From UHGV virus genome UHGV-0086135: a DNA stretch of 64,000 bases; one strand, given 5' to 3'. A program made the translations under genes and the position numbers. Below the pieces are notes generated by a model. That model did not search any database and was not told the DNA's origin. It saw nothing but the letters and a program-made list of their open reading frames with translations. This stretch comes from a virus. Each line of letters begins with the position of its first letter. Positions within the stretch are counted from its first letter, which is position 1. Positions 1,502 to 33,535 of this stretch are shown here, in pieces.

Positions 1502-4198
1502 ATGAAAGAATTTTATATCTCTATCGAAACAGTCGGAAATAATATTGTTGAGCGTTATATTGATGAAAACGGAAAGGAACGTACCCGTGAAGTAGAATAT
1601 CTTCCGACTATGTTTAGGCATTGTAAGGAAGAGTCAAAATACAAAGACATTTATGGTAAAAATTGCGCTCCTCAAAAATTTCCATCAATGAAAGATGCGC
1701 GAGACTGGATGAAGCGAATGGAAGACATCGGTCTCGAAGCTCTCGGTATGAACGATTTTAAACTCGCTTATATCAGTGATACATATGGTTCAGAAATTGT
1801 TTATGACCGAAAATTTGTTCGTGTGGCTAACTGTGACATTGAGGTTACTGGCGATAAATTTCCTGACCCAATGAAAGCAGAATATGAAATTGATGCTATC
1901 ACTCATTATGATTCAATTGACGATCGTTTTTACGTCTTTGATTTATTGAATTCAATGTACGGTTCAGTATCAAAATGGGATGCAAAGCTAGCTGCTAAGC
2001 TTGACTGTGAAGGTGGTGATGAAGTTCCTCAAGAAATTCTTGACCGAGTAATTTATATGCCATTCGATAATGAGCGTGATATGCTCATGGAATATATTAA
2101 TCTCTGGGAACAGAAACGACCTGCTATTTTTACCGGTTGGAATATTGAGGGATTTGACGTTCCGTATATCATGAATCGCGTTAAAATGGTTCTCGGTGAA
2201 CGCAGTATGAAACGCTTCTCTCCAATCGGTCGAGTAAAATCTAAACTAATTCAAAATATGTACGGTAGCAAAGAAATTTATTCTATTGATGGCGTATCTA
2301 TTCTTGATTATTTAGATTTGTACAAGAAATTCGCATTTACTAATTTGCCATCATTCTCTTTGGAATCAGTTGCTCAACATGAAACCAAAAAAGGTAAATT
2401 GCCGTACGATGGTCCTATTAATAAACTTCGTGAGACTAATCATCAACGATACATTAGTTATAACATCATTGACGTAGAATCAGTTCAAGCAATTGATAAA
2501 ATTCGTGGGTTTATCGATCTAGTTTTAAGTATGTCTTATTACGCTAAAATGCCTTTTTCTGGTGTAATGAGCCCTATTAAAACTTGGGATGCTATTATTT
2601 TTAACTCACTGAAAGGTGAACATAAGGTTATTCCTCAACAAGGTTCGCACGTTAAACAAAGTTTTCCGGGTGCATTTGTATTTGAACCTAAACCAATTGC
2701 TCGTCGATATATTATGAGTTTTGACTTGACGTCTCTGTATCCGAGCATTATTCGTCAGGTTAACATTAGTCCTGAGACTATTCGTGGGCAGTTTAAAGTT
2801 CATCCAATTCATGAATATATTGCAGGAACAGCTCCTAAACCGAGTGATGAATATTCTTGTTCTCCGAATGGATGGATGTATGATAAGCACCAAGAAGGTA
2901 TCATTCCAAAGGAAATCGCTAAAGTATTTTTCCAGCGTAAAGATTGGAAAAAGAAAATGTTCGCTGAAGAAATGAATGCCGAAGCTATTAAAAAGATTAT
3001 TATGAAAGGTGCAGGGACTTGCTCAACTAAACCAGAAGTTGAACGATATGTTAAGTTTAGCGATGATTTCTTAAACGAATTATCGAATTACACCGAATCT
3101 GTTCTTAACAGTCTGATTGAAGAATGTGAAAAAGCTGCTACACTTGCTAACACAAATCAGCTGAACCGTAAAATTCTTATTAACAGTCTTTATGGTGCTC
3201 TTGGTAATATTCATTTCCGTTACTATGATTTGCGAAATGCTACTGCTATCACAATTTTCGGTCAAGTCGGTATTCAGTGGATTGCTCGCAAAATTAATGA
3301 ATATCTAAATAAAGTGTGTGGAACTAATGGTGAAGATTTCATCGCAGCAGGTGATACTGATTCGGTATATGTTTGTGTAGATAAAGTAATTGAAAAAGTA
3401 GGTCTTGACCGCTTTAAAGAACAAAATGATTTAGTTGAATTCATGAATCAGTTTGGTAAGAAAAAGATGGAACCTATGATTGATGTTGCATATCGTGAGT
3501 TATGTGATTATATGAATAACCGCGAGCATCTGATGCATATGGACCGTGAAGCTATTTCTTGCCCTCCGCTTGGTTCAAAGGGTGTTGGTGGATTTTGGAA
3601 AGCGAAAAAACGTTATGCTCTGAACGTTTATGATATGGAAGATAAGCGATTTGCTGAACCACATCTAAAAATCATGGGTATGGAAACTCAGCAGAGTTCA
3701 ACACCAAAAGCAGTACAAGAAGCTCTCGAAGAAAGTATTCGTCGTATTCTTCAGGAAGGCGAAGAGTCTGTCCAAGAATACTACAAGAACTTTGAGAAAG
3801 AATATCGTCAACTTGACTATAAAGTTATTGCTGAAGTAAAAACTGCGAACGATATAGCGAAATATGATGATAAAGGTTGGCCAGGATTTAAATGTCCGTT
3901 CCATATTCGTGGTGTGCTAACTTATCGTCGAGCTGTTAGCGGTTTAGGTGTAGCTCCAATTTTGGATGGAAATAAGGTAATGGTTCTTCCATTACGTGAA
4001 GGAAATCCATTTGGTGACAAGTGCATTGCTTGGCCATCAGGCACAGAACTTCCAAAAGAAATTCGTTCTGATGTACTGTCTTGGATTGACTACTCAACTT
4101 TGTTCCAAAAATCGTTTGTTAAACCGCTTGCGGGCATGTGTGAATCGGCGGGTATGGACTATGAAGAAAAAGCTTCGTTAGACTTCCTGTTTGGCTGA
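1502..4198 (+). CDS. 43: DNA polymerase gp43 (family B, with 3'-5' exonuclease)
   Basis: 898 aa as T4 gp43; exo motif CDIEVTG, polymerase motifs KILINSLYGALG and AGDTDSVY; preceded by the gp43 operator hairpin. Confidence 0.95.
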   Translation: MKEFYISIETVGNNIVERYIDENGKERTREVEYLPTMFRHCKEESKYKDIYGKNCAPQKFPSMKDARDWMKRMEDIGLEALGMNDFKLAYISDTYGSEIVYDRKFVRVANCDIEVTGDKFPDPMKAEYEIDAITHYDSIDDRFYVFDLLNSMYGSVSKWDAKLAAKLDCEGGDEVPQEILDRVIYMPFDNERDMLMEYINLWEQKRPAIFTGWNIEGFDVPYIMNRVKMVLGERSMKRFSPIGRVKSKLIQNMYGSKEIYSIDGVSILDYLDLYKKFAFTNLPSFSLESVAQHETKKGKLPYDGPINKLRETNHQRYISYNIIDVESVQAIDKIRGFIDLVLSMSYYAKMPFSGVMSPIKTWDAIIFNSLKGEHKVIPQQGSHVKQSFPGAFVFEPKPIARRYIMSFDLTSLYPSIIRQVNISPETIRGQFKVHPIHEYIAGTAPKPSDEYSCSPNGWMYDKHQEGIIPKEIAKVFFQRKDWKKKMFAEEMNAEAIKKIIMKGAGTCSTKPEVERYVKFSDDFLNELSNYTESVLNSLIEECEKAATLANTNQLNRKILINSLYGALGNIHFRYYDLRNATAITIFGQVGIQWIARKINEYLNKVCGTNGEDFIAAGDTDSVYVCVDKVIEKVGLDRFKEQNDLVEFMNQFGKKKMEPMIDVAYRELCDYMNNREHLMHMDREAISCPPLGSKGVGGFWKAKKRYALNVYDMEDKRFAEPHLKIMGMETQQSSTPKAVQEALEESIRRILQEGEESVQEYYKNFEKEYRQLDYKVIAEVKTANDIAKYDDKGWPGFKCPFHIRGVLTYRRAVSGLGVAPILDGNKVMVLPLREGNPFGDKCIAWPSGTELPKEIRSDVLSWIDYSTLFQKSFVKPLAGMCESAGMDYEEKASLDFLFG

Positions 4199-4317: not shown

Positions 4318-4346
4318 TTTACATCCCTGTTCTTCCGTGGTACTAT
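4318..4346 (+). promoter_or_regulatory. early sigma-70 promoter in stem-loop/promoter cassette (copy A)
   Basis: -35 TTTACA, 17 nt, extended -10 TGGTACTAT; follows gene 43 terminator. Confidence 0.6.
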
Positions 4347-27361: not shown

Positions 27362-29539
27362 ATGATTATCACCACTGAAAAAGAAACAATTCTTGGTAAT
27401 GGTTCTAAATCAAAAGCATTTAGCATCGCAGCAAATCCTAAAGTATTTAAAATTCTGTCATCTGATTTGTATACAAACAAGATTCGCGCAGTAGTCCGTG
27501 AATTGATTACCAACATGATTGACGCCCATGCTCTCAATGGAAATCATGAAAAATTTATCATTCAAGTTCCAGGACGATTAGATCCGCGATTTGTTTGCCG
27601 AGATTTTGGTCCGGGTATGAGCGATTTTGATATTCAAGGTGATGATAATTCTCCTGGGTTGTATAATTCATACTTTAGTTCATCTAAGGCTGAATCTAAC
27701 GATTTCATTGGTGGATTTGGTTTAGGTTCTAAATCTCCGTTTAGTTATACTGATACATTTAGTATTACTTCGTATCATAAAGGTGAAATTCGCGGTTATG
27801 TAGCTTACATGGATGGTGATGGTCCGCAAATTAAACCTACATTTGTAAAAGAAATGGGTCCAAATGATAAAACTGGTATTGAAATCGTAGTTCCAGTTGA
27901 AGAAAAAGACTTTAGAAACTTTGCTTATGAAGTTTCTTATATCATGCGACCATTCAAAGATTTAGCTATCATTAATGGTCTTGACCGCGAAATTGATTAT
28001 TTTCCGGATTTTGATGACTATTACGGCGTAAATCCAGAAAGATACTGGCCAGATCGTGGTGGATTGTATGCTATCTATGGTGGTATTGTTTATCCTATCG
28101 ATGGTGTTATTAGAGACCGTAACTGGTTAAGCATCCGCAATGAAGTGAATTACATTAAGTTTCCAATGGGTTCACTTGATATTGCTCCATCGCGTGAGGC
28201 TCTTTCACTGGATGATCGTACTCGTAAAAATATTATTGAGCGTGTTAAAGAGCTTAGTGAGAAGGCATTCAATGAAGATGTAAAACGATTTAAAGAATCT
28301 ACATCTCCTCGTCATACATACCGTGAATTGATGAAGATGGGATATTCTGCTCGAGATTATATGATTAGTAATTCAGTCAAATTTACGACTAAAAATCTTT
28401 CATATAAGAAGATGCAAAGCATGTTTGAACCTGACAGTAAGTTATGCAATGCAGGAGTTGTGTATGAAGTAAATCTTGACCCTCGACTGAAACGCATTAA
28501 GCAAAGTCATGAAACTTCAGCCGTTGCATCAAGTTATCGTCTATTTGGTATTAATACAACAAAAATTAATATTGTTATTGATAATATTAAAAATCGTGTT
28601 AATATTGTCCGTGGATTAGCGCATGCGTTAGATGATAGTGAATTTAATAACACCTTAAATATTCATCATAATGAGCGTCTTCTGTTTATTAATCCGGAAG
28701 TAGAATCGCAGATTGATTTACTCCCTGATATTATGGCAATGTTTGAAAGTGATGAAGTTAACATTCATTATTTGTCAGAAATTGAAGCTTTAGTTAAAAG
28801 TTATATTCCAAAGGCAGTAAAAAGTAAAGCTCCTCGTCCTAAAGCTGCTACTGCGTTTAAGTTTGAAATTAAAGACGGACGCTGGGAAAAAGAGGAACTG
28901 TTTACACTCACATCAGAAGCAGATGAAATTACTGGCTATGTAGCATATATGCATCGTTCTGATATTTTCTCTATGGATGGTACTACATCGCTTTGTCATC
29001 CATCTACGAGTATTTTGACTCGTATGGCTAATCTTATTGGCATTAATGAATTTTATGTTATTCGTCCGCTTTTGCAGAAAAAGGTAAAAGAACTTGGTCA
29101 GTGCCAATGTATTTTTGAAACTCTGCGTGATTTATATGTAGATGCTTTTGATGATGTAGATTATGATAAGTATGTAGGTTATTCAAGTTCAGCTAAACGA
29201 TATATTGATAAAATTATCAAGTATCCTGAGTTAGATTTTATGATGAAGTACTTCAGTGTAGATGAAGTTTCTGAAGAATATACACGACTCGCTAATATGG
29301 TTAGTTCATTACAGGGTGTATATTTCAACGGTGGAAAAGATACCATCGGTCATGACATCTGGACAGTAACTAATCTTTTTGATGTATTATCAAATAATGC
29401 TTCAAAAAACAGTGATAAAATGGTTGCTGAGTTTACCAAGAAATTCCGTATTGTTTCCGACTTCATCGGTTATCGCAACTCTTTAAGTGATGATGAAGTT
29501 TCCCAAATCGCTAAAACTATGAAGGCCCTTGCGGCCTAA
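27362..29539 (+). CDS. rIIA: rIIA protein
   Basis: 725 aa as T4 rIIA; N-terminal GHKL-like ATPase region; followed by rIIB. Confidence 0.9.
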
Positions 29540-29550
29540 TAAGGAAAATT

Positions 29551-30489
29551 ATGTACAATATTAAATGCCTGACCAAAAACGAACAAGCTGAAATTGTCAA
29601 ACTGTATTCAAGTGGTAATTACACCCAACAGGAATTGGCTGATTGGCAAGGTGTATCGGTTGACACAATCCGTCGTGTTTTGAAAAATGCTGAAGAAGCT
29701 GAACGCTCCAAAGTTACTATTAGCGGTGATATTACAGTTAAAGTTAATAGCGATGCAGTTATTGCTCCAGTTGCTAAATCTGACATTATTTGGAATGCAT
29801 CTAAAAAATTCATTTCAATTACTGTTGACGGTGTAACTTATAACGCAACTCCTAATACTCATTCAAACTTCCAGGAAATTCTTAATCTGCTTGTTACAGA
29901 TAAATTGGAAGAAGCGGCGCAAAAAATTAACGTTCGTCGCGCCGTTGAAAAATATATTTCCGGTGATGTTCGAATTGAAGGTGGAAGCTTGTTCTATCAA
30001 AATATTGAATTGCGATCTGGTTTAGTTGATCGTATTCTCGATTCGATGGAAAAAGGCGAAAACTTTGAATTTTATTTTCCGTTCTTGGAAAATCTGTTGG
30101 AAAACCCAAGCCAAAAAGCGGTATCTCGACTCTTTGATTTCTTGGTAGCAAACGATATTGAAATTACAGAAGATGGTTACTTCTATGCTTGGAAAGTAGT
30201 TCGCAGCAATTACTTTGACTGTCATTCAAATACTTTTGATAACAGTCCTGGTAAAGTAGTTAAAATGCCACGTACTCGTGTGAATGACGATGATACACAA
30301 ACTTGTTCTCGTGGTCTGCATGTGTGTTCTAAATCTTATATTCGTCACTTTGGCAGTTCAACCAGTCGAGTTGTAAAAGTTAAAGTACATCCTCGCGATG
30401 TAGTATCAATTCCGATTGATTACAATGATGCTAAAATGCGTACCTGCCAATACGAAGTAGTTGAAGACGTTACTGAACAATTTAAATAA
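29551..30489 (+). CDS. rIIB: rIIB protein
   Basis: 312 aa as T4 rIIB; classic AAGGAAAAUUAUG initiation region. Confidence 0.9.
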   Translation: MYNIKCLTKNEQAEIVKLYSSGNYTQQELADWQGVSVDTIRRVLKNAEEAERSKVTISGDITVKVNSDAVIAPVAKSDIIWNASKKFISITVDGVTYNATPNTHSNFQEILNLLVTDKLEEAAQKINVRRAVEKYISGDVRIEGGSLFYQNIELRSGLVDRILDSMEKGENFEFYFPFLENLLENPSQKAVSRLFDFLVANDIEITEDGYFYAWKVVRSNYFDCHSNTFDNSPGKVVKMPRTRVNDDDTQTCSRGLHVCSKSYIRHFGSSTSRVVKVKVHPRDVVSIPIDYNDAKMRTCQYEVVEDVTEQFK

Positions 30490-30506
30490 GGGCTTCGGCC
30501 CTTAAC
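30490..30506 (+). terminator. hairpin after rIIB
   Basis: GGGC-UUCG-GCCC; weak U tract. Confidence 0.45.
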
Positions 30507-30517
30507 TAAGGAAAATT

Positions 30518-30712
30518 ATGCTAGGTTATCAAGCACGAGTAAAAGAAGAATACGATCAATTAATGCTCAAAATTAATGCACTGAGCAAATTTTTAGAAAG
30601 CACAAAGTTTCTAACGATTAATGAAGTTGAGCAAGAATTACTGCTTTCACAATTCATCTCAATGAAATCTTACGCAGATTGTTTAGAAAAAAGAATTGCA
30701 CAATTCAAATAA
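30518..30712 (+). CDS. hypothetical protein (64 aa) bracketed by two GGGCUUCGGCCC hairpins
   Basis: ORF with AAGGAAAA SD. Confidence 0.4.
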   Translation: MLGYQARVKEEYDQLMLKINALSKFLESTKFLTINEVEQELLLSQFISMKSYADCLEKRIAQFK

Positions 30713-30717
30713 AATAA

Positions 30718-30739
30718 GGGGCTTCGGCCCTTTTGTTTT
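30718..30739 (+). terminator. intrinsic terminator
   Basis: GGGGC-UUCG-GCCC hairpin plus UUUUGUUUU. Confidence 0.6.
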
Positions 30740-30750
30740 AAGGAAAAATT

Positions 30751-31080
30751 ATGATTTATTGTATGAATATCGGTGATTCCGACATAAAAGAGATTAAACT
30801 GCACGGAAATCATCACGCTAATATTGTGTACTGCAATAAATTTGAGTTTGGTCACGAAAAACTTGGGTTTCTTTACTGCAATGATATTATAGTCATGGAT
30901 AAAAAGGAACTCGATGAACTTGACCGTGAGTCTTTAGATGAAAATGACCGAATTTATTACGGCACTCTTAAAGTATATAACGCTTATCTCAGCGGTAAAA
31001 AGGAAAGTCTAAATGCAGAAAACGAATCCGGGTTTACAGAGACTATTTCAGATTCCGACATTTACCCTATCGAACAGTGA
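30751..31080 (+). CDS. hypothetical protein (109 aa)
   Basis: ORF with AAGGAAAAA SD. Confidence 0.45.
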   Translation: MIYCMNIGDSDIKEIKLHGNHHANIVYCNKFEFGHEKLGFLYCNDIIVMDKKELDELDRESLDENDRIYYGTLKVYNAYLSGKKESLNAENESGFTETISDSDIYPIEQ

Positions 31081-31570
31081 CTTGACTAGTGAAATGAAGG
31101 TCAAAATTGCTGATACAGCAAGATACTCTTTAAAACAAAACCCGAACCAGGATAAAGCAGAAGTTATCGAAAGATGTCGTATCGCGGTGTACGCAGAGTT
31201 TTTTGTAGCAGATTGGCTAAGCGGGTATGTTAACAAAGGCCAAGAGGATGTTAATGACCCGTATACATACGCATGGGATGTATTGGCGCATCCAAGATAC
31301 TGCGGGCTTCGTGTAGAAGTTAAGACACATCAAACTGACTCGCGTTGGATTTCGGTAACAACAGGATGCAGCGGAGAGTATCCATACGGTTCTGGAATAA
31401 ATCTAGGGCCCATTCTGAATCATCAGGTCGCTGACTGTATAATTATATTCAACACTAAAGAAATTCATCCAGGTGTCATCCAGTACACTCCGAAGTTCAT
31501 CGGTGATAGAGAAGACCTTCGTAAGGTTGTAAGAAAAAGCAACTACAACGGATGGTATCTTTCCATTTAA
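31013..31570 (+). CDS. denB: possible endonuclease IV DenB
   Basis: 185 aa, same length as T4 DenB, located between rIIB and ndd; AAGGAAAG SD before ATG 31013; overlaps upstream ORF by 68 nt. Confidence 0.45.
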   Translation: MQKTNPGLQRLFQIPTFTLSNSDLTSEMKVKIADTARYSLKQNPNQDKAEVIERCRIAVYAEFFVADWLSGYVNKGQEDVNDPYTYAWDVLAHPRYCGLRVEVKTHQTDSRWISVTTGCSGEYPYGSGINLGPILNHQVADCIIIFNTKEIHPGVIQYTPKFIGDREDLRKVVRKSNYNGWYLSI

Positions 31571-31587
31571 AAATTTTCACAAAACGG

Positions 31588-31616
31588 TTTACATATCACA
31601 AGGACTGTGGTACTAT
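31588..31616 (+). promoter_or_regulatory. early promoter in cassette (copy B)
   Basis: -35 TTTACA, 17 nt, TGGTACTAT; leader identical to copy A over 43 nt. Confidence 0.65.
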
Positions 31617-31650
31617 ACAACTATCAACTGATACGGATTTGGAGAATAAA

Positions 31651-31857
31651 ATGTTTACTACGGCTGAATTAAAACGAGCAAAAGCTAAGAAAGGGCAAGG
31701 AAAATATAAAGCTGAATTAGTTAAAGAACTTCAGTTTGCTGAGGCTGAATTGAATTCGATGATTATTCAAAATGCTCCAGAAACTGAAATTGCTCTTAAA
31801 CGTATTGCGAATAAATGTCTTCGTGATACAATCGTCGATCTTTTAGCGGATTATTGA
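31651..31857 (+). CDS. hypothetical protein (68 aa)
   Basis: ATG 31651 preceded by the conserved cassette leader; ORF-track start 31552 lies upstream of the promoter. Confidence 0.5.
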   Translation: MFTTAELKRAKAKKGQGKYKAELVKELQFAEAELNSMIIQNAPETEIALKRIANKCLRDTIVDLLADY

Positions 31858-32126
31858 GTAAAATGAAATTTAAATTTTATTGCGCTAAACATAAAATAAC
31901 TGATGAGTTTGTGTCAGTTGAATATTCTAGCGATGATGAAGGCATGATTTATACTCGTTTGGGATTATCACACTGGGAGTCTGATACGCCTTATTTTTCA
32001 ACTCCCGAAGAAATTACACGCTTAGTTAATGGTCATATGAATGACCACTGGGATGTAATTCTTTCAGATAGTCTTAAAGCGGCTATTAATAGTAATGAAA
32101 TGAAAATCGCTGAGATTGAACTATGA
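31854..32126 (+). CDS. hypothetical protein (90 aa)
   Basis: ATGA overlap with upstream ORF. Confidence 0.45.
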   Translation: MSKMKFKFYCAKHKITDEFVSVEYSSDDEGMIYTRLGLSHWESDTPYFSTPEEITRLVNGHMNDHWDVILSDSLKAAINSNEMKIAEIEL

Positions 32127-32209
32127 GTTCATTATGGTGGTGTTTTGTTTGGTTAATTAGTATTCCATTGATTTGTTTAGTATTTACTTTTGTGATGAGG
32201 TTATTATGA
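32123..32209 (+). CDS. tiny hydrophobic peptide (28 aa)
   Basis: MSSLWWCFVWLISIPLICLVFTFVMRLL; ATGA overlap; speculative. Confidence 0.3.
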   Translation: MSSLWWCFVWLISIPLICLVFTFVMRLL

Positions 32210-32304
32210 AAATTTTGAATTCTGTGCTTATTGCTTGTGCGTGGTGGGTTGCGCAAGTTTCAGCGGTAGTAGTTGGTATTCACATTTATTACGAATATTT
32301 TTAA
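32206..32304 (+). CDS. tiny hydrophobic peptide (32 aa)
   Basis: MKILNSVLIACAWWVAQVSAVVVGIHIYYEYF; ATGA overlap; speculative. Confidence 0.3.
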   Translation: MKILNSVLIACAWWVAQVSAVVVGIHIYYEYF

Positions 32305-32312
32305 AAAAGTTG

Positions 32313-32342
32313 TTTACAAGACTGTTCCTCTGTGGTACTATA
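32313..32342 (+). promoter_or_regulatory. early promoter in cassette
   Basis: -35 GTTTACA, 18 nt, TGGTACTAT. Confidence 0.6.
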
Positions 32343-32369
32343 CAACTATCAACTACGGAGGAACAGAAA

Positions 32370-32483
32370 ATGAAAAAGATTGTTAAAGCTATATGGAATG
32401 TAGTTATAATACTAGTAGTTTTGAGTATATTCCCAATCGTTTTAATGATTGATGTATTAAACGCTTACTTTGGATTTATGTGA
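32370..32483 (+). CDS. tiny hydrophobic peptide (37 aa)
   Basis: ATG 32370 with GGAGGA SD behind early promoter; single TM helix. Confidence 0.4.
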   Translation: MKKIVKAIWNVVIILVVLSIFPIVLMIDVLNAYFGFM

Positions 32484-32490
32484 GGAAAAT

Positions 32491-32688
32491 ATGAAGCGTA
32501 AACGCAGTGCTTTTACATTTGTTGAATGGTTTTTCGATAATATTTTTCCGGCTTTATTCATTTTCATGCTGATTTTCGCCTTAGGTTCAGTTGTAGTTGG
32601 AATTTATTTGATGGCAGTTGTCGGAATGGATATTCACCAAAATGGCTTAAAATCTGTAGTTGAAACAATTTGGAATGGTGTAAAATGA
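32491..32688 (+). CDS. small membrane protein (65 aa)
   Basis: ATG 32491 with GAGGA SD; long hydrophobic stretch. Confidence 0.45.
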   Translation: MKRKRSAFTFVEWFFDNIFPALFIFMLIFALGSVVVGIYLMAVVGMDIHQNGLKSVVETIWNGVK

Positions 32689-32795
32689 TGAATTTGCTGA
32701 GCGGTTGGTTTTATATTCTCGTGTTTTACATTGGTGCAAATTTTCCGTATTGGATGGGATGGTCAACAACTGCATTCGGATTTTATACTCCTTGA
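32685..32795 (+). CDS. tiny hydrophobic peptide (36 aa)
   Basis: ATGATG start overlapping upstream stop; aromatic-rich TM. Confidence 0.3.
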   Translation: MMNLLSGWFYILVFYIGANFPYWMGWSTTAFGFYTP

Positions 32796-32803
32796 GGTGA
32801 ATT

Positions 32804-33019
32804 ATGAAAATTTTTAAAGATGTAAAAGTTGGTGAAATTTTTTGTTTAGATAATGGTGATCAGTTAATTCGTATTTCACCTCTTAAGAGCACTAGCGAGA
32901 AAATGACAGTTAACGCTACTTTAGAAAACAACAGTAATGAGCGTTTCTGCATTGAAAATGATACTGAAACTTATACCGTAGAAGAGTTCTGGGAATTGAG
33001 CGTCGACTGTGACGATTAA
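32804..33019 (+). CDS. hypothetical protein (71 aa)
   Basis: ORF with GAGG SD. Confidence 0.45.
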   Translation: MKIFKDVKVGEIFCLDNGDQLIRISPLKSTSEKMTVNATLENNSNERFCIENDTETYTVEEFWELSVDCDD

Positions 33020-33079
33020 TTTATTGGCCGTGTGTATTCATGCGGCCTTGGAGTAGAAAATAATTTAGAGGAAATTAAT

Positions 33080-33535
33080 ATGAAATACATGACTGTTACT
33101 GATCTGAATAATGCAGGCGCAACTGTTATTGGTACAATCAAGGGCGGTGAATGGGTTTTTGGAACTCCGCATAAAGACATTTTGTCTAAACCTGGATTTT
33201 ACTTTTTAGTGAGCAAATTTGGTGGTCCATTTGATAGTCCATGTGTATCTGCGCGATTTTATGTAGGTAATCAGCGTTCTAAGCAAGGGTTCAGTGCAGT
33301 TCTAAGTCATATTCGTCAACGTCGGTCTCAGCTTGCGCGTACTATTGCAAATAACAATGTTCCATACACAGTATTTTATTTGCCTGCTTCTAAGATGAAA
33401 CCTCTGACGACGGGATTTGGAAAAGGTCAGTTAGCTTTGGCGTTTACTCGTAATCATCATTCTGAGTATCAAACGCTTGAAGAAATGAACCGTATGTTGG
33501 CTGATAACTTTAAATTTGTTTTGCAGGCATATTAA
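33080..33535 (+). CDS. ndd: nucleoid disruption protein Ndd
   Basis: 151 aa from ATG 33080 (T4 Ndd 151 aa); [14 protein letters not shown]-terminus recalled from T4; GAGGA SD. Confidence 0.8.

Follow-up and report, generated by a model that had tools for sequence, protein, structure and literature searches.

The interval described here belongs to the virus genome UHGV-0086135 of the UHGV collection and was analysed within a window of 64,000 nucleotides (nt), the whole stretch of DNA at hand, in which it occupies positions 30490-33079 and so fills exactly the space from the end of rIIB (stop at 30489) to the ndd ATG (33080). It carries eleven open reading frames (ORFs) of 28-185 amino acids (aa), all on the + strand and together making about 89% of the interval coding, as a first-pass annotation of the sequence had counted (at least eleven ORFs of 28-185 aa in about 2.6 kb). 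It is very probably the ordinary stretch from rIIB to ndd in the dispensable D region of a Tequatrovirus, namely an RB14/RB32/ime09-like T-even phage, a stretch whose plasticity comes from short-homology recombination that shuffles one and the same dozen gene families. The eleven genes are as follows.

30518..30712, + strand: denB.1, 64 aa, Pfam crAss001_48-related protein (PF21825, 69.7 bits against a cut-off of 24.8; phrog_774, 5.6e-23)
30751..31080, + strand: 109-aa acidic ORF, equal to RB32ORF268c, DUF7418 (PF24193, 126.1 bits against a cut-off of 27; phrog_2237, 2.2e-44)
31013..31570, + strand: denB, 185 aa, endonuclease IV, a dC-specific single-stranded DNA endonuclease (phrog_1360, 1.8e-97)
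31651..31857, + strand: 68-aa basic ORF, equal to RB32ORF266c and PST ORF269 (phrog_4535), absent from T4
31863..32126, + strand: 87-aa acidic ORF, equal to RB14ncORF269c and PST ORF268 and RB69ORF270c-like (phrog_2390), absent from T4
32123..32209, + strand: ndd.6, 28 aa (phrog_8851, 4.8e-16), 92% identical to T4, grand average of hydropathy (GRAVY) 1.94
32206..32304, + strand: ndd.5, 32 aa (phrog_5011, 3.6e-26), 100% identical to T4, GRAVY 1.25, its start overlapping the ndd.6 stop
32370..32483, + strand: ndd.4, 37 aa (phrog_3098, 3.1e-21), 91% identical to T4, GRAVY 1.80
32491..32688, + strand: ndd.2a, 65 aa, DUF7248 membrane protein (PF23906, 71.8 bits against a cut-off of 27; phrog_2401)
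32688..32795, + strand: ndd.2, 35 aa, 94% identical to T4 and annotated in RB14, its start overlapping the ndd.2a stop
32804..33019, + strand: ndd.1, 71 aa, acidic and soluble (phrog_2183, 9.7e-38), 95% identical to T4

Besides DenB, the set divides into five small soluble proteins (denB.1, the 109-, 68- and 87-aa ORFs, and ndd.1) and five strongly hydrophobic mini-proteins with GRAVY values of 0.65-1.94 (ndd.6, ndd.5, ndd.4, ndd.2a, and ndd.2), while the 109-aa ORF, the 87-aa ORF, and ndd.1 are acidic, with isoelectric points of 4.2-4.8. Most ORFs are preceded by a Shine-Dalgarno-like (SD) sequence; in ndd.6 and ndd.2 it is weak or missing, and their starts overlap the upstream stops (ATGA, shared with the 87-aa ORF, and ATGATG, respectively). 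The mechanical ORF around the 68-aa gene is longer, 101 aa from 31552. Upstream of the interval lie rIIA (27362-29539) and rIIB (29551-30489), with the early genes on the + strand of the window, and downstream, on the same strand, come ndd (33080-33535) and then stp, ac, 52.1, and gene 52.

The evidence for this reading comes mainly from the comparison with T4 and its relatives. In T4 (NC_000866 / AF158101), nine ORFs are annotated in the rIIB-ndd interval, namely denB.1, denB, ndd.6, ndd.5, ndd.4, ndd.3, ndd.2a, ndd.2, and ndd.1, which contradicts the first-pass statement that T4 has only denB and one or two small ORFs here, and by tblastn eight of the eleven ORFs are T4 orthologues with 90-100% aa identity (90% for DenB.1 and 98% for DenB). 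By blastn, the only DNA absent from T4 is about 195 bp within the 109-aa ORF (~30804-30998) and about 440 bp containing the 68- and 87-aa ORFs (~31654-32093). All three of these ORFs are annotated in RB14, RB32, and PST, and tblastn against the phage collection gave full-length copies of all three: 353 records have the 109-aa ORF, in every case immediately 5' of denB, 129 have the 68-aa ORF (including T2, RB3, RB14, RB32, PST, and S16-like Salmonella phages), and 641 have the 87-aa ORF, spread over Tequatro-, Mosig-, and Dhakavirus; about 250 further records hold only the T4-type C-terminal remnant of the 109-aa ORF. The RB14 annotation lists denB.1, RB32ORF268c, denB, RB32ORF266c, RB14ncORF269c, ndd.5, ndd.4, ndd.2a, ndd.2, and ndd.1, leaving ndd.6 unannotated. 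There is therefore no support for the claim that, in relation to T4, most of the block is accessory cargo, because the extra ORFs are both annotated in these relatives and widespread.

A BLAST query of positions 30400-33150 matched 526 records of the phage collection, 413 of them over at least 80% of the query and 28 over 100%, with a best match 97.8% identical; the IMG/VR search with rIIB as the query gave 8 loci only, and the population survey is thus made of the BLAST counts in the phage collection. As judged by sequence comparison, the block is already known, all eleven genes being catalogued in T4 or its close relatives. One T4 gene has no separate counterpart here, since T4 ndd.3 (26 aa) and ndd.2a (40 aa) together correspond to the single 65-aa DUF7248 ORF, split in T4 by a 1-nt deletion after codon 2 (NC_000866 166432-166628, ATGAA-CGT vs. 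ATGAAGCGT). The intact 65-aa ndd.2a is found in 11 of 13 Tequatrovirus loci, the exceptions being T4 itself, with its frameshift, and Shigella phage ESH35, which has lost the gene; therefore, a frameshift artefact or a mutation of the strain probably accounts for ndd.3 in T4, given that these 11 loci and the present phage keep the ORF intact.

The plasticity of the block is real yet modest, and it has been published before. The matching records fall into coverage classes of 100, 92, 85, 82, 75, 59, and 47%, and the 13 Tequatrovirus loci show seven presence/absence patterns in which the variation consists of whole-ORF insertions and deletions (indels), always within the same families. The first-pass interpretation is partly supported: the block is dispensable, early/middle in expression, and variable by whole-ORF indels, and it lies next to known host-takeover genes. 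In comparison with T4, the indels are ORF-precise deletions whose 5-7-nt microhomologies fall in start codons and SD regions. In T4 and about 250 other records, the 109-aa ORF has suffered an in-frame 210-bp deletion at TAAAAG that leaves a remnant of about 38 codons overlapping the denB start. The T4 deletion of the 68- and 87-aa ORFs took place at AAATG and fused the ATG of the 68-aa ORF to the codon after M80 of the 87-aa ORF, leaving behind the early promoter an unannotated 8-codon ORF, MKIAEIEL*, the stop of which overlaps the ndd.6 start (ATGA), and therefore the translational coupling is kept in T4. In T6, RB51, and others, only the 68-aa ORF is missing, with GAGAATAAAATG joined to GAGTAAAATG across the microhomology GAG(A)ATAAAATG / GAGTAAAATG. 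Wu et al. (2021) demonstrated UvsX-dependent minihomology deletions of tens to hundreds of bp between 3-8-nt repeats in T4 denB (PMC8262927), and the junctions seen here match that mechanism. We found no sign of homing endonucleases or mobile elements in the interval, that is, no GIY-YIG, HNH, or LAGLIDADG ORF and no insertion with target-site features.

Three side observations concern the same variable genes. One source calls a 37-aa protein from the remnant of the 109-aa ORF (P0040). The 87-aa ORF occurs within Tequatrovirus as at least two divergent alleles at the same position, with ~95-99% and ~50-55% aa identity to the present copy (including locus L014, phage SholemSchwarzbard), which points to allele replacement and not to mere presence or absence alone. 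In Shigella phage ESH35 (ON528745), ndd.2a, ndd.2, ndd.1, ndd, and stp have been lost by a natural deletion, so that ndd.4 is directly followed by ac, and therefore even ndd and stp are dispensable in nature.

Whether such short frames are genes at all was addressed by family scans and by codon-position counts. The PHROG and Pfam scans covered ten of the eleven ORFs, and all ten match existing PHROGs over their full length, whereas ndd.2 was placed by its T4 and RB14 orthologues; Pfam matches above the gathering threshold over the full domain were obtained for denB.1, the 109-aa ORF, and ndd.2a. The variable sites at codon positions 1/2/3 across the 13 Tequatrovirus loci number 7/3/17 in denB.1, 9/2/29 in the 109-aa ORF, 7/6/47 in denB, 1/1/8 in ndd.5, 3/3/21 in ndd.2a, 4/3/12 in ndd.2, and 2/3/20 in ndd.1, and this excess at position 3 establishes these seven as genuine coding sequences. 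It is highly improbable that many of the very small ORFs (28-37 aa) arose by chance as frames in intergenic DNA rich in AT, even though they are tiny, the variable sites of ndd.6 and ndd.4 are too few for a judgement by codon position, ndd.6 is unannotated in RB14, and T4 proteomics found no peptides for the ndd.2-ndd.6 products (PMC9697503 supplement), so that their translation rests on conservation and on SD or coupling signals. These ORFs are intact, with 91-100% aa identity, in all 13 loci; ndd.6, ndd.5, ndd.4, and ndd.2a have dedicated PHROG families; the third-position excess extends to ndd.5, ndd.2a, and ndd.2; an SD sequence or an ATGA/ATGATG overlap precedes each mini-ORF; their GRAVY is uniformly high, as is typical of single-pass membrane peptides; and Dhakavirus and Mosigvirus retain ORFs like ndd.4 and ndd.6, with 44-58% identity.

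The signals between the genes are also those of T4-like phages, and they consist of the following elements.

30487..30504, + strand: C(UUCG)G hairpin 1, directly 3' of the rIIB stop and followed by the SD sequence and ATG of denB.1 (-10.9 kcal/mol, z -2.1)
30716..30741, + strand: C(UUCG)G hairpin 2, a stem plus TTTTGTTTT tract, intrinsic-terminator-like (-12.8 kcal/mol, z -2.78)
31588..31616, + strand: early promoter 1, T4-type TTTACA-N17-TGgTACTAT, upstream of the 68-aa ORF
32313..32341, + strand: early promoter 2, T4-type TTTACA-N17-TGgTACTAT, upstream of ndd.4
32322..32366, + strand: 15-bp hairpin pairing the promoter-2 spacer/-10 region with the ndd.4 SD sequence GGAGGA (-23.4 kcal/mol, z -4.05)
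33026..33047, + strand: 9-bp G+C hairpin in the gap from ndd.1 to ndd, within a larger fold of -24.5 kcal/mol (z -2.9); OL960580 lists it as a terminator

The 64-aa denB.1 is indeed flanked by hairpins, as first noticed, and these contain two identical GGGCTTCGGCCC 12-mers (30490-30501 and 30719-30730) and form stable folds. Both have a C-G-closed UUCG loop on a G+C stem and are more stable than shuffled sequence, and together they make a 25-nt direct repeat of 80% identity; terminator-like hairpins in general are enriched (11 found vs. 2.4 +/- 1.8). Hairpin 1 lacks a U-run on the + strand, where TTAACTAAGG comes next, and so does not qualify as an intrinsic terminator; it is kept in all 13 Tequatrovirus loci, T4 included, with the loop variants CTTTGG and CTCCGG. 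Hairpin 2, conserved in relatives, has the form of an intrinsic (rho-independent) terminator and is followed by the SD sequence and ATG of the 109-aa ORF. The GGGCTTCGGCCC sequence has three copies in the window against 0.02 expected, the third exact hairpin copy standing at 1429-1440, just upstream of an 898-aa ORF (1502-4198) that we take, from its length and position, to be the gene 43 DNA polymerase. The hairpin at 33026-33047 is conserved with compensatory-looking changes (locus L006, RB51).

As for promoters, the first-pass annotation had several ORFs with an early promoter of their own, and T4-type early promoters do exist, but only two. Both resemble the annotated motA early promoter of T4, with about 82% identity across ~100 bp, both are annotated as T4 early promoters in OL960580, and generic sigma-70-like matches are not enriched (20 vs. 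16.6 +/- 4.8). The two share a 25-nt exact repeat (31605-31629 and 32330-32354), the -10/leader motif TGTGGTACTATACAACTATCAAC, of which the window holds five copies, all on the + strand, against 0 expected, the others being at 4336, 35470, and 52120. At the ndd.4 promoter, this motif is present in our phage and in locus L007, whereas T4, RB14, T6, and others have TACTATTACCCTATCAAC instead; this suggests gene conversion between promoter cassettes, by which the leader here may have been turned into the motA/68-aa-ORF type, and such conversion would add to the plasticity of the locus.

In the expression scheme that we propose, denB.1, the 109-aa ORF, and denB would have no promoter of their own and would be reached by upstream read-through across the two C(UUCG)G hairpins, of which hairpin 2, with its TTTTGTTTT tract, should attenuate the read-through and delay expression, while the two strong early promoters would drive the genes from the 68-aa ORF through ndd. 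In T4 omics data, the RNA and protein of denB.1 and denB are classed as "middle", the RNA of ndd.1-ndd.6 as "early", and the Ndd.1 protein as "early" (PMC9697503 supplement); read-through across an attenuating hairpin fits the first class, and two early promoters fit the timing of the ndd.1-ndd.6 RNA. The 15-bp hairpin would hide the ndd.4 ribosome-binding site (RBS) on read-through RNA and could not form on promoter-2 RNA, given that RNA starting at 32348 (the estimated start, a few nt past the -10 box) has no 5' arm and folds at 0 kcal/mol; ndd.4 would thus be translated mainly from promoter-proximal transcripts, because the 5' arm of the hairpin is missing from the promoter-2 RNA. This hairpin is conserved in T4, RB14, and T6, where the changes are compatible with wobble pairing; a single record lists it simply as a terminator. 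In the literature, we found no description of an RBS-sequestering hairpin for ndd.4. In T4 gene e, soc, and I-TevI, hairpins sequestering the RBS limit translation to promoter-proximal transcripts, and from its sequence the ndd.4 hairpin looks like transcript-specific translational control of the gene e/soc type.

The presence of two promoter cassettes with 25 identical nt, 725 bp apart and flanking the 68-aa, 87-aa, ndd.6, and ndd.5 ORFs, brings up another explanation of the indels, namely, that the variable ORFs are mobile promoter-early stem-loop (PeSL) cassettes which move as excised mini-circles, as in the Arbiol/Comeau model, instead of being removed by microhomology deletion. The locus was in fact published as a hyperplastic, PeSL variable site in the comparison of PST with T4, with a PeSL-mediated exchange as the proposal (Comeau, Arbiol and Krisch 2014, PMC4122927 Fig 6A), the promoter leaders are chimeric among relatives, and the promoter part of a PeSL is found at both sites (31588-31653 and 32313-32372) as TTTACW-N17-TAYWAT followed by an SD sequence and a start codon. 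We nevertheless consider this explanation improbable. The stem-loop just upstream of the promoter is missing at both sites, the promoter 1 region folding like its shuffles (z -0.34) and the promoter 2 stem-loop spanning the -10 box and the SD sequence instead of preceding the -35 box. The junctions do not run from promoter to promoter but lie at start-codon/SD microhomologies; both the 68-aa indel and the T4 68+87-aa deletion have their left ends at the SD/ATG of cassette 1 and their right ends at unrelated microhomologies. The published exchange of T4 ndd.4/.5 for PST ORF268/269 (the 87- and 68-aa ORFs) dissolves into a simple indel plus an annotation gap, because PST keeps ndd.4 and also has intact ndd.6 (92%) and ndd.5 (100% aa identity) in an unannotated 243-bp gap (NC_027404 165170-165411). 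We retain deletion and recombination at short homologies as the source of the variation.

The arrangement of the 109-aa ORF and denB deserves separate mention, given that the last 68 nt of the former overlap the annotated start of the latter. In Mosigvirus and Dhakavirus (loci L017 and L018), DenB has 158 aa and starts 13-16 nt past the stop of the DUF7418 gene, at the equivalent of M28 (31094) in the 185-aa DenB of Tequatrovirus; the 27 additional N-terminal aa of the latter (31013-31093) overlap the DUF7418 gene. As a candidate for the true DenB start, M28 was rejected for Tequatrovirus, and the 185-aa start was retained, because five of the seven variable sites in the overlap (a small sample) fall at denB codon position 3 and because a good SD sequence precedes 31013. 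DUF7418 itself is narrow: an exhaustive representative search of 1.84 billion proteins gave 15 representative clusters and no informative domain fusion (the long multi-stretch matches look like low complexity), and its invariant residues are L17, G19, H21, A23, Y27, G39, D45, L62, R67, and G71. The AlphaFold2 model of the 109-aa ORF, made from a shallow 6-sequence alignment, was unusable, with a predicted local distance difference test (pLDDT) of 41, and was excluded from the fold search; the 87-aa predicted model is confident (pLDDT 85), and no solved fold in the structure libraries matched it.

With regard to function, denB, ndd, stp, and ac are known host-takeover or host-interaction genes in or beside the block, DenB being the known enzyme that cuts cytosine-containing single-stranded host DNA. 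In T4, the saDelta9 deletion shows that the whole 52.1-denB interval is dispensable, and it abolishes the stimulation of phospholipid synthesis by the phage (PMC6071114); the natural ESH35 deletion of ndd.2a through stp is consistent with this dispensability. PDB sequence searches with five ORFs (including the 109-aa ORF and ndd.1) and with a DUF7418 profile of 10 sequences yielded no match below E = 0.2, word-indexed homologue searches with three ORFs returned near-identical phage proteins only, and the PADLOC and NCBIfam scans, which use general libraries and not a dedicated anti-defence library, gave no meaningful matches; profile and fold searches together provided no functional lead and no evidence for or against an anti-defence role. 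In the literature, we found no functional study of denB.1, of ndd.1-ndd.6, or of the 109-, 68-, and 87-aa ORFs.

This is the place to weigh the first-pass view of the block as mostly lineage-specific cargo set on top of a minimal T4 layout and rich in new host-takeover or anti-defence genes, which we regard as doubtful. The region is dispensable, early/middle in expression, and variable in content, it adjoins the host-interaction genes just named, and ten of its products are uncharacterised, with the 87-aa protein giving a confident model that matches no known fold. However, eight of its ORFs are T4 genes, the other three occur in 129-641 deposited genomes of several genera, the differences are deletions in T4, where remnants are retained, and not insertions here, and no match was found in PADLOC, NCBIfam, PDB sequences, or the structure libraries. 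Nor is the set one of characterised T4 core proteins: every ORF is conserved and catalogued, but DenB is the sole characterised product and none is core. One or more of the uncharacterised products may be a new host-interaction factor, a view that we hold tentatively and from context, the candidates being the 87-aa protein, the DUF7418 109-aa protein, and the five membrane mini-proteins. The 87-aa protein is proposed for its confident predicted model without a counterpart among solved structures, and the DUF7418 protein for the placement of its gene directly upstream of the toxic nuclease gene denB (overlapping it here), its invariant His/Asp/Arg, and its confinement to T4-like phages. As to the five coupled membrane mini-proteins, the saDelta9-dependent stimulation of phosphatidylglycerol synthesis may be due to them, or they may block a membrane-associated abortive-infection system.

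In summary, the interval is best read as the usual rIIB-ndd segment of a T-even phage, reshuffled by short-homology recombination, and several points weigh against taking this as settled. "Ordinary" describes the catalogue status of the genes and not an understood biology, given that ten of the eleven products are without demonstrated function; the lack of ndd.2-ndd.6 peptides in T4 and the scarcity of variable sites in ndd.6 and ndd.4 bear on the coding status of the smallest genes; and we infer the transcription starts, the termination at the hairpins, and the occlusion of the ndd.4 SD sequence from the sequence and the T4 omics classes.

The block has been on the T4 map since the 1990s, and its variable members were catalogued in RB14, RB32, and PST by 2009-2014. 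Ten conserved early genes of the best-studied phage, some of them present in hundreds of genomes, are nonetheless without a function, a long-standing gap for T4 itself, and the loss of phospholipid-synthesis stimulation in saDelta9 maps to the 52.1-denB interval without assignment to a gene. The mode in which T-even phages trim this region, by deletions at start-codon/SD microhomologies that spare the frames and the coupling, is useful for the engineering of a minimal T4 genome.

Among known systems, the nearest are RB14, ime09, vB_SsoM_113, and about 25 other records, fully collinear with our phage at 96-98% nt identity; the RB14/RB32/ime09/vB_SsoM_113 block contains all eleven ORFs and differs by point changes only, plus the leader type of the ndd.4 promoter. 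In the D region of T4 (NC_000866 165.6-168.0 kb), the flanks, gene order, strand, hairpins, and two early promoters are all as here, but the 109-, 68-, and 87-aa ORFs present in our phage are lost or truncated, and a frameshifted ndd.3/ndd.2a pair stands where our phage has the intact 65-aa ndd.2a. The C(UUCG)G tetraloop hairpins that T4 has between its cistrons, reportedly described by Tuerk and colleagues in PNAS in 1988, are like those found here in having C-UUCG-G on a G+C stem between early-mRNA cistrons, and T4 has its two at the identical places without any notable difference. The hairpins of gene e, soc, and I-TevI resemble that of ndd.4 in that their 5' arm precedes the proximal transcription start while their 3' arm lies over the SD sequence. 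PeSL loci (Arbiol 2010; PMC4122927) are alike in the early promoter, SD sequence, and ATG repeated in the genome beside ORF indels, but there the stem-loop precedes the promoter, whereas here none precedes promoter 1 and the junctions lie at microhomologies and not at cassette boundaries. The UvsX minihomology deletions (PMC8262927) are comparable to the natural junctions of this block, with their 5-7-nt repeats; those deletions were selected in the laboratory under Cas9 cleavage, while the ones found here are natural polymorphisms that preserve the frame and the translational coupling.

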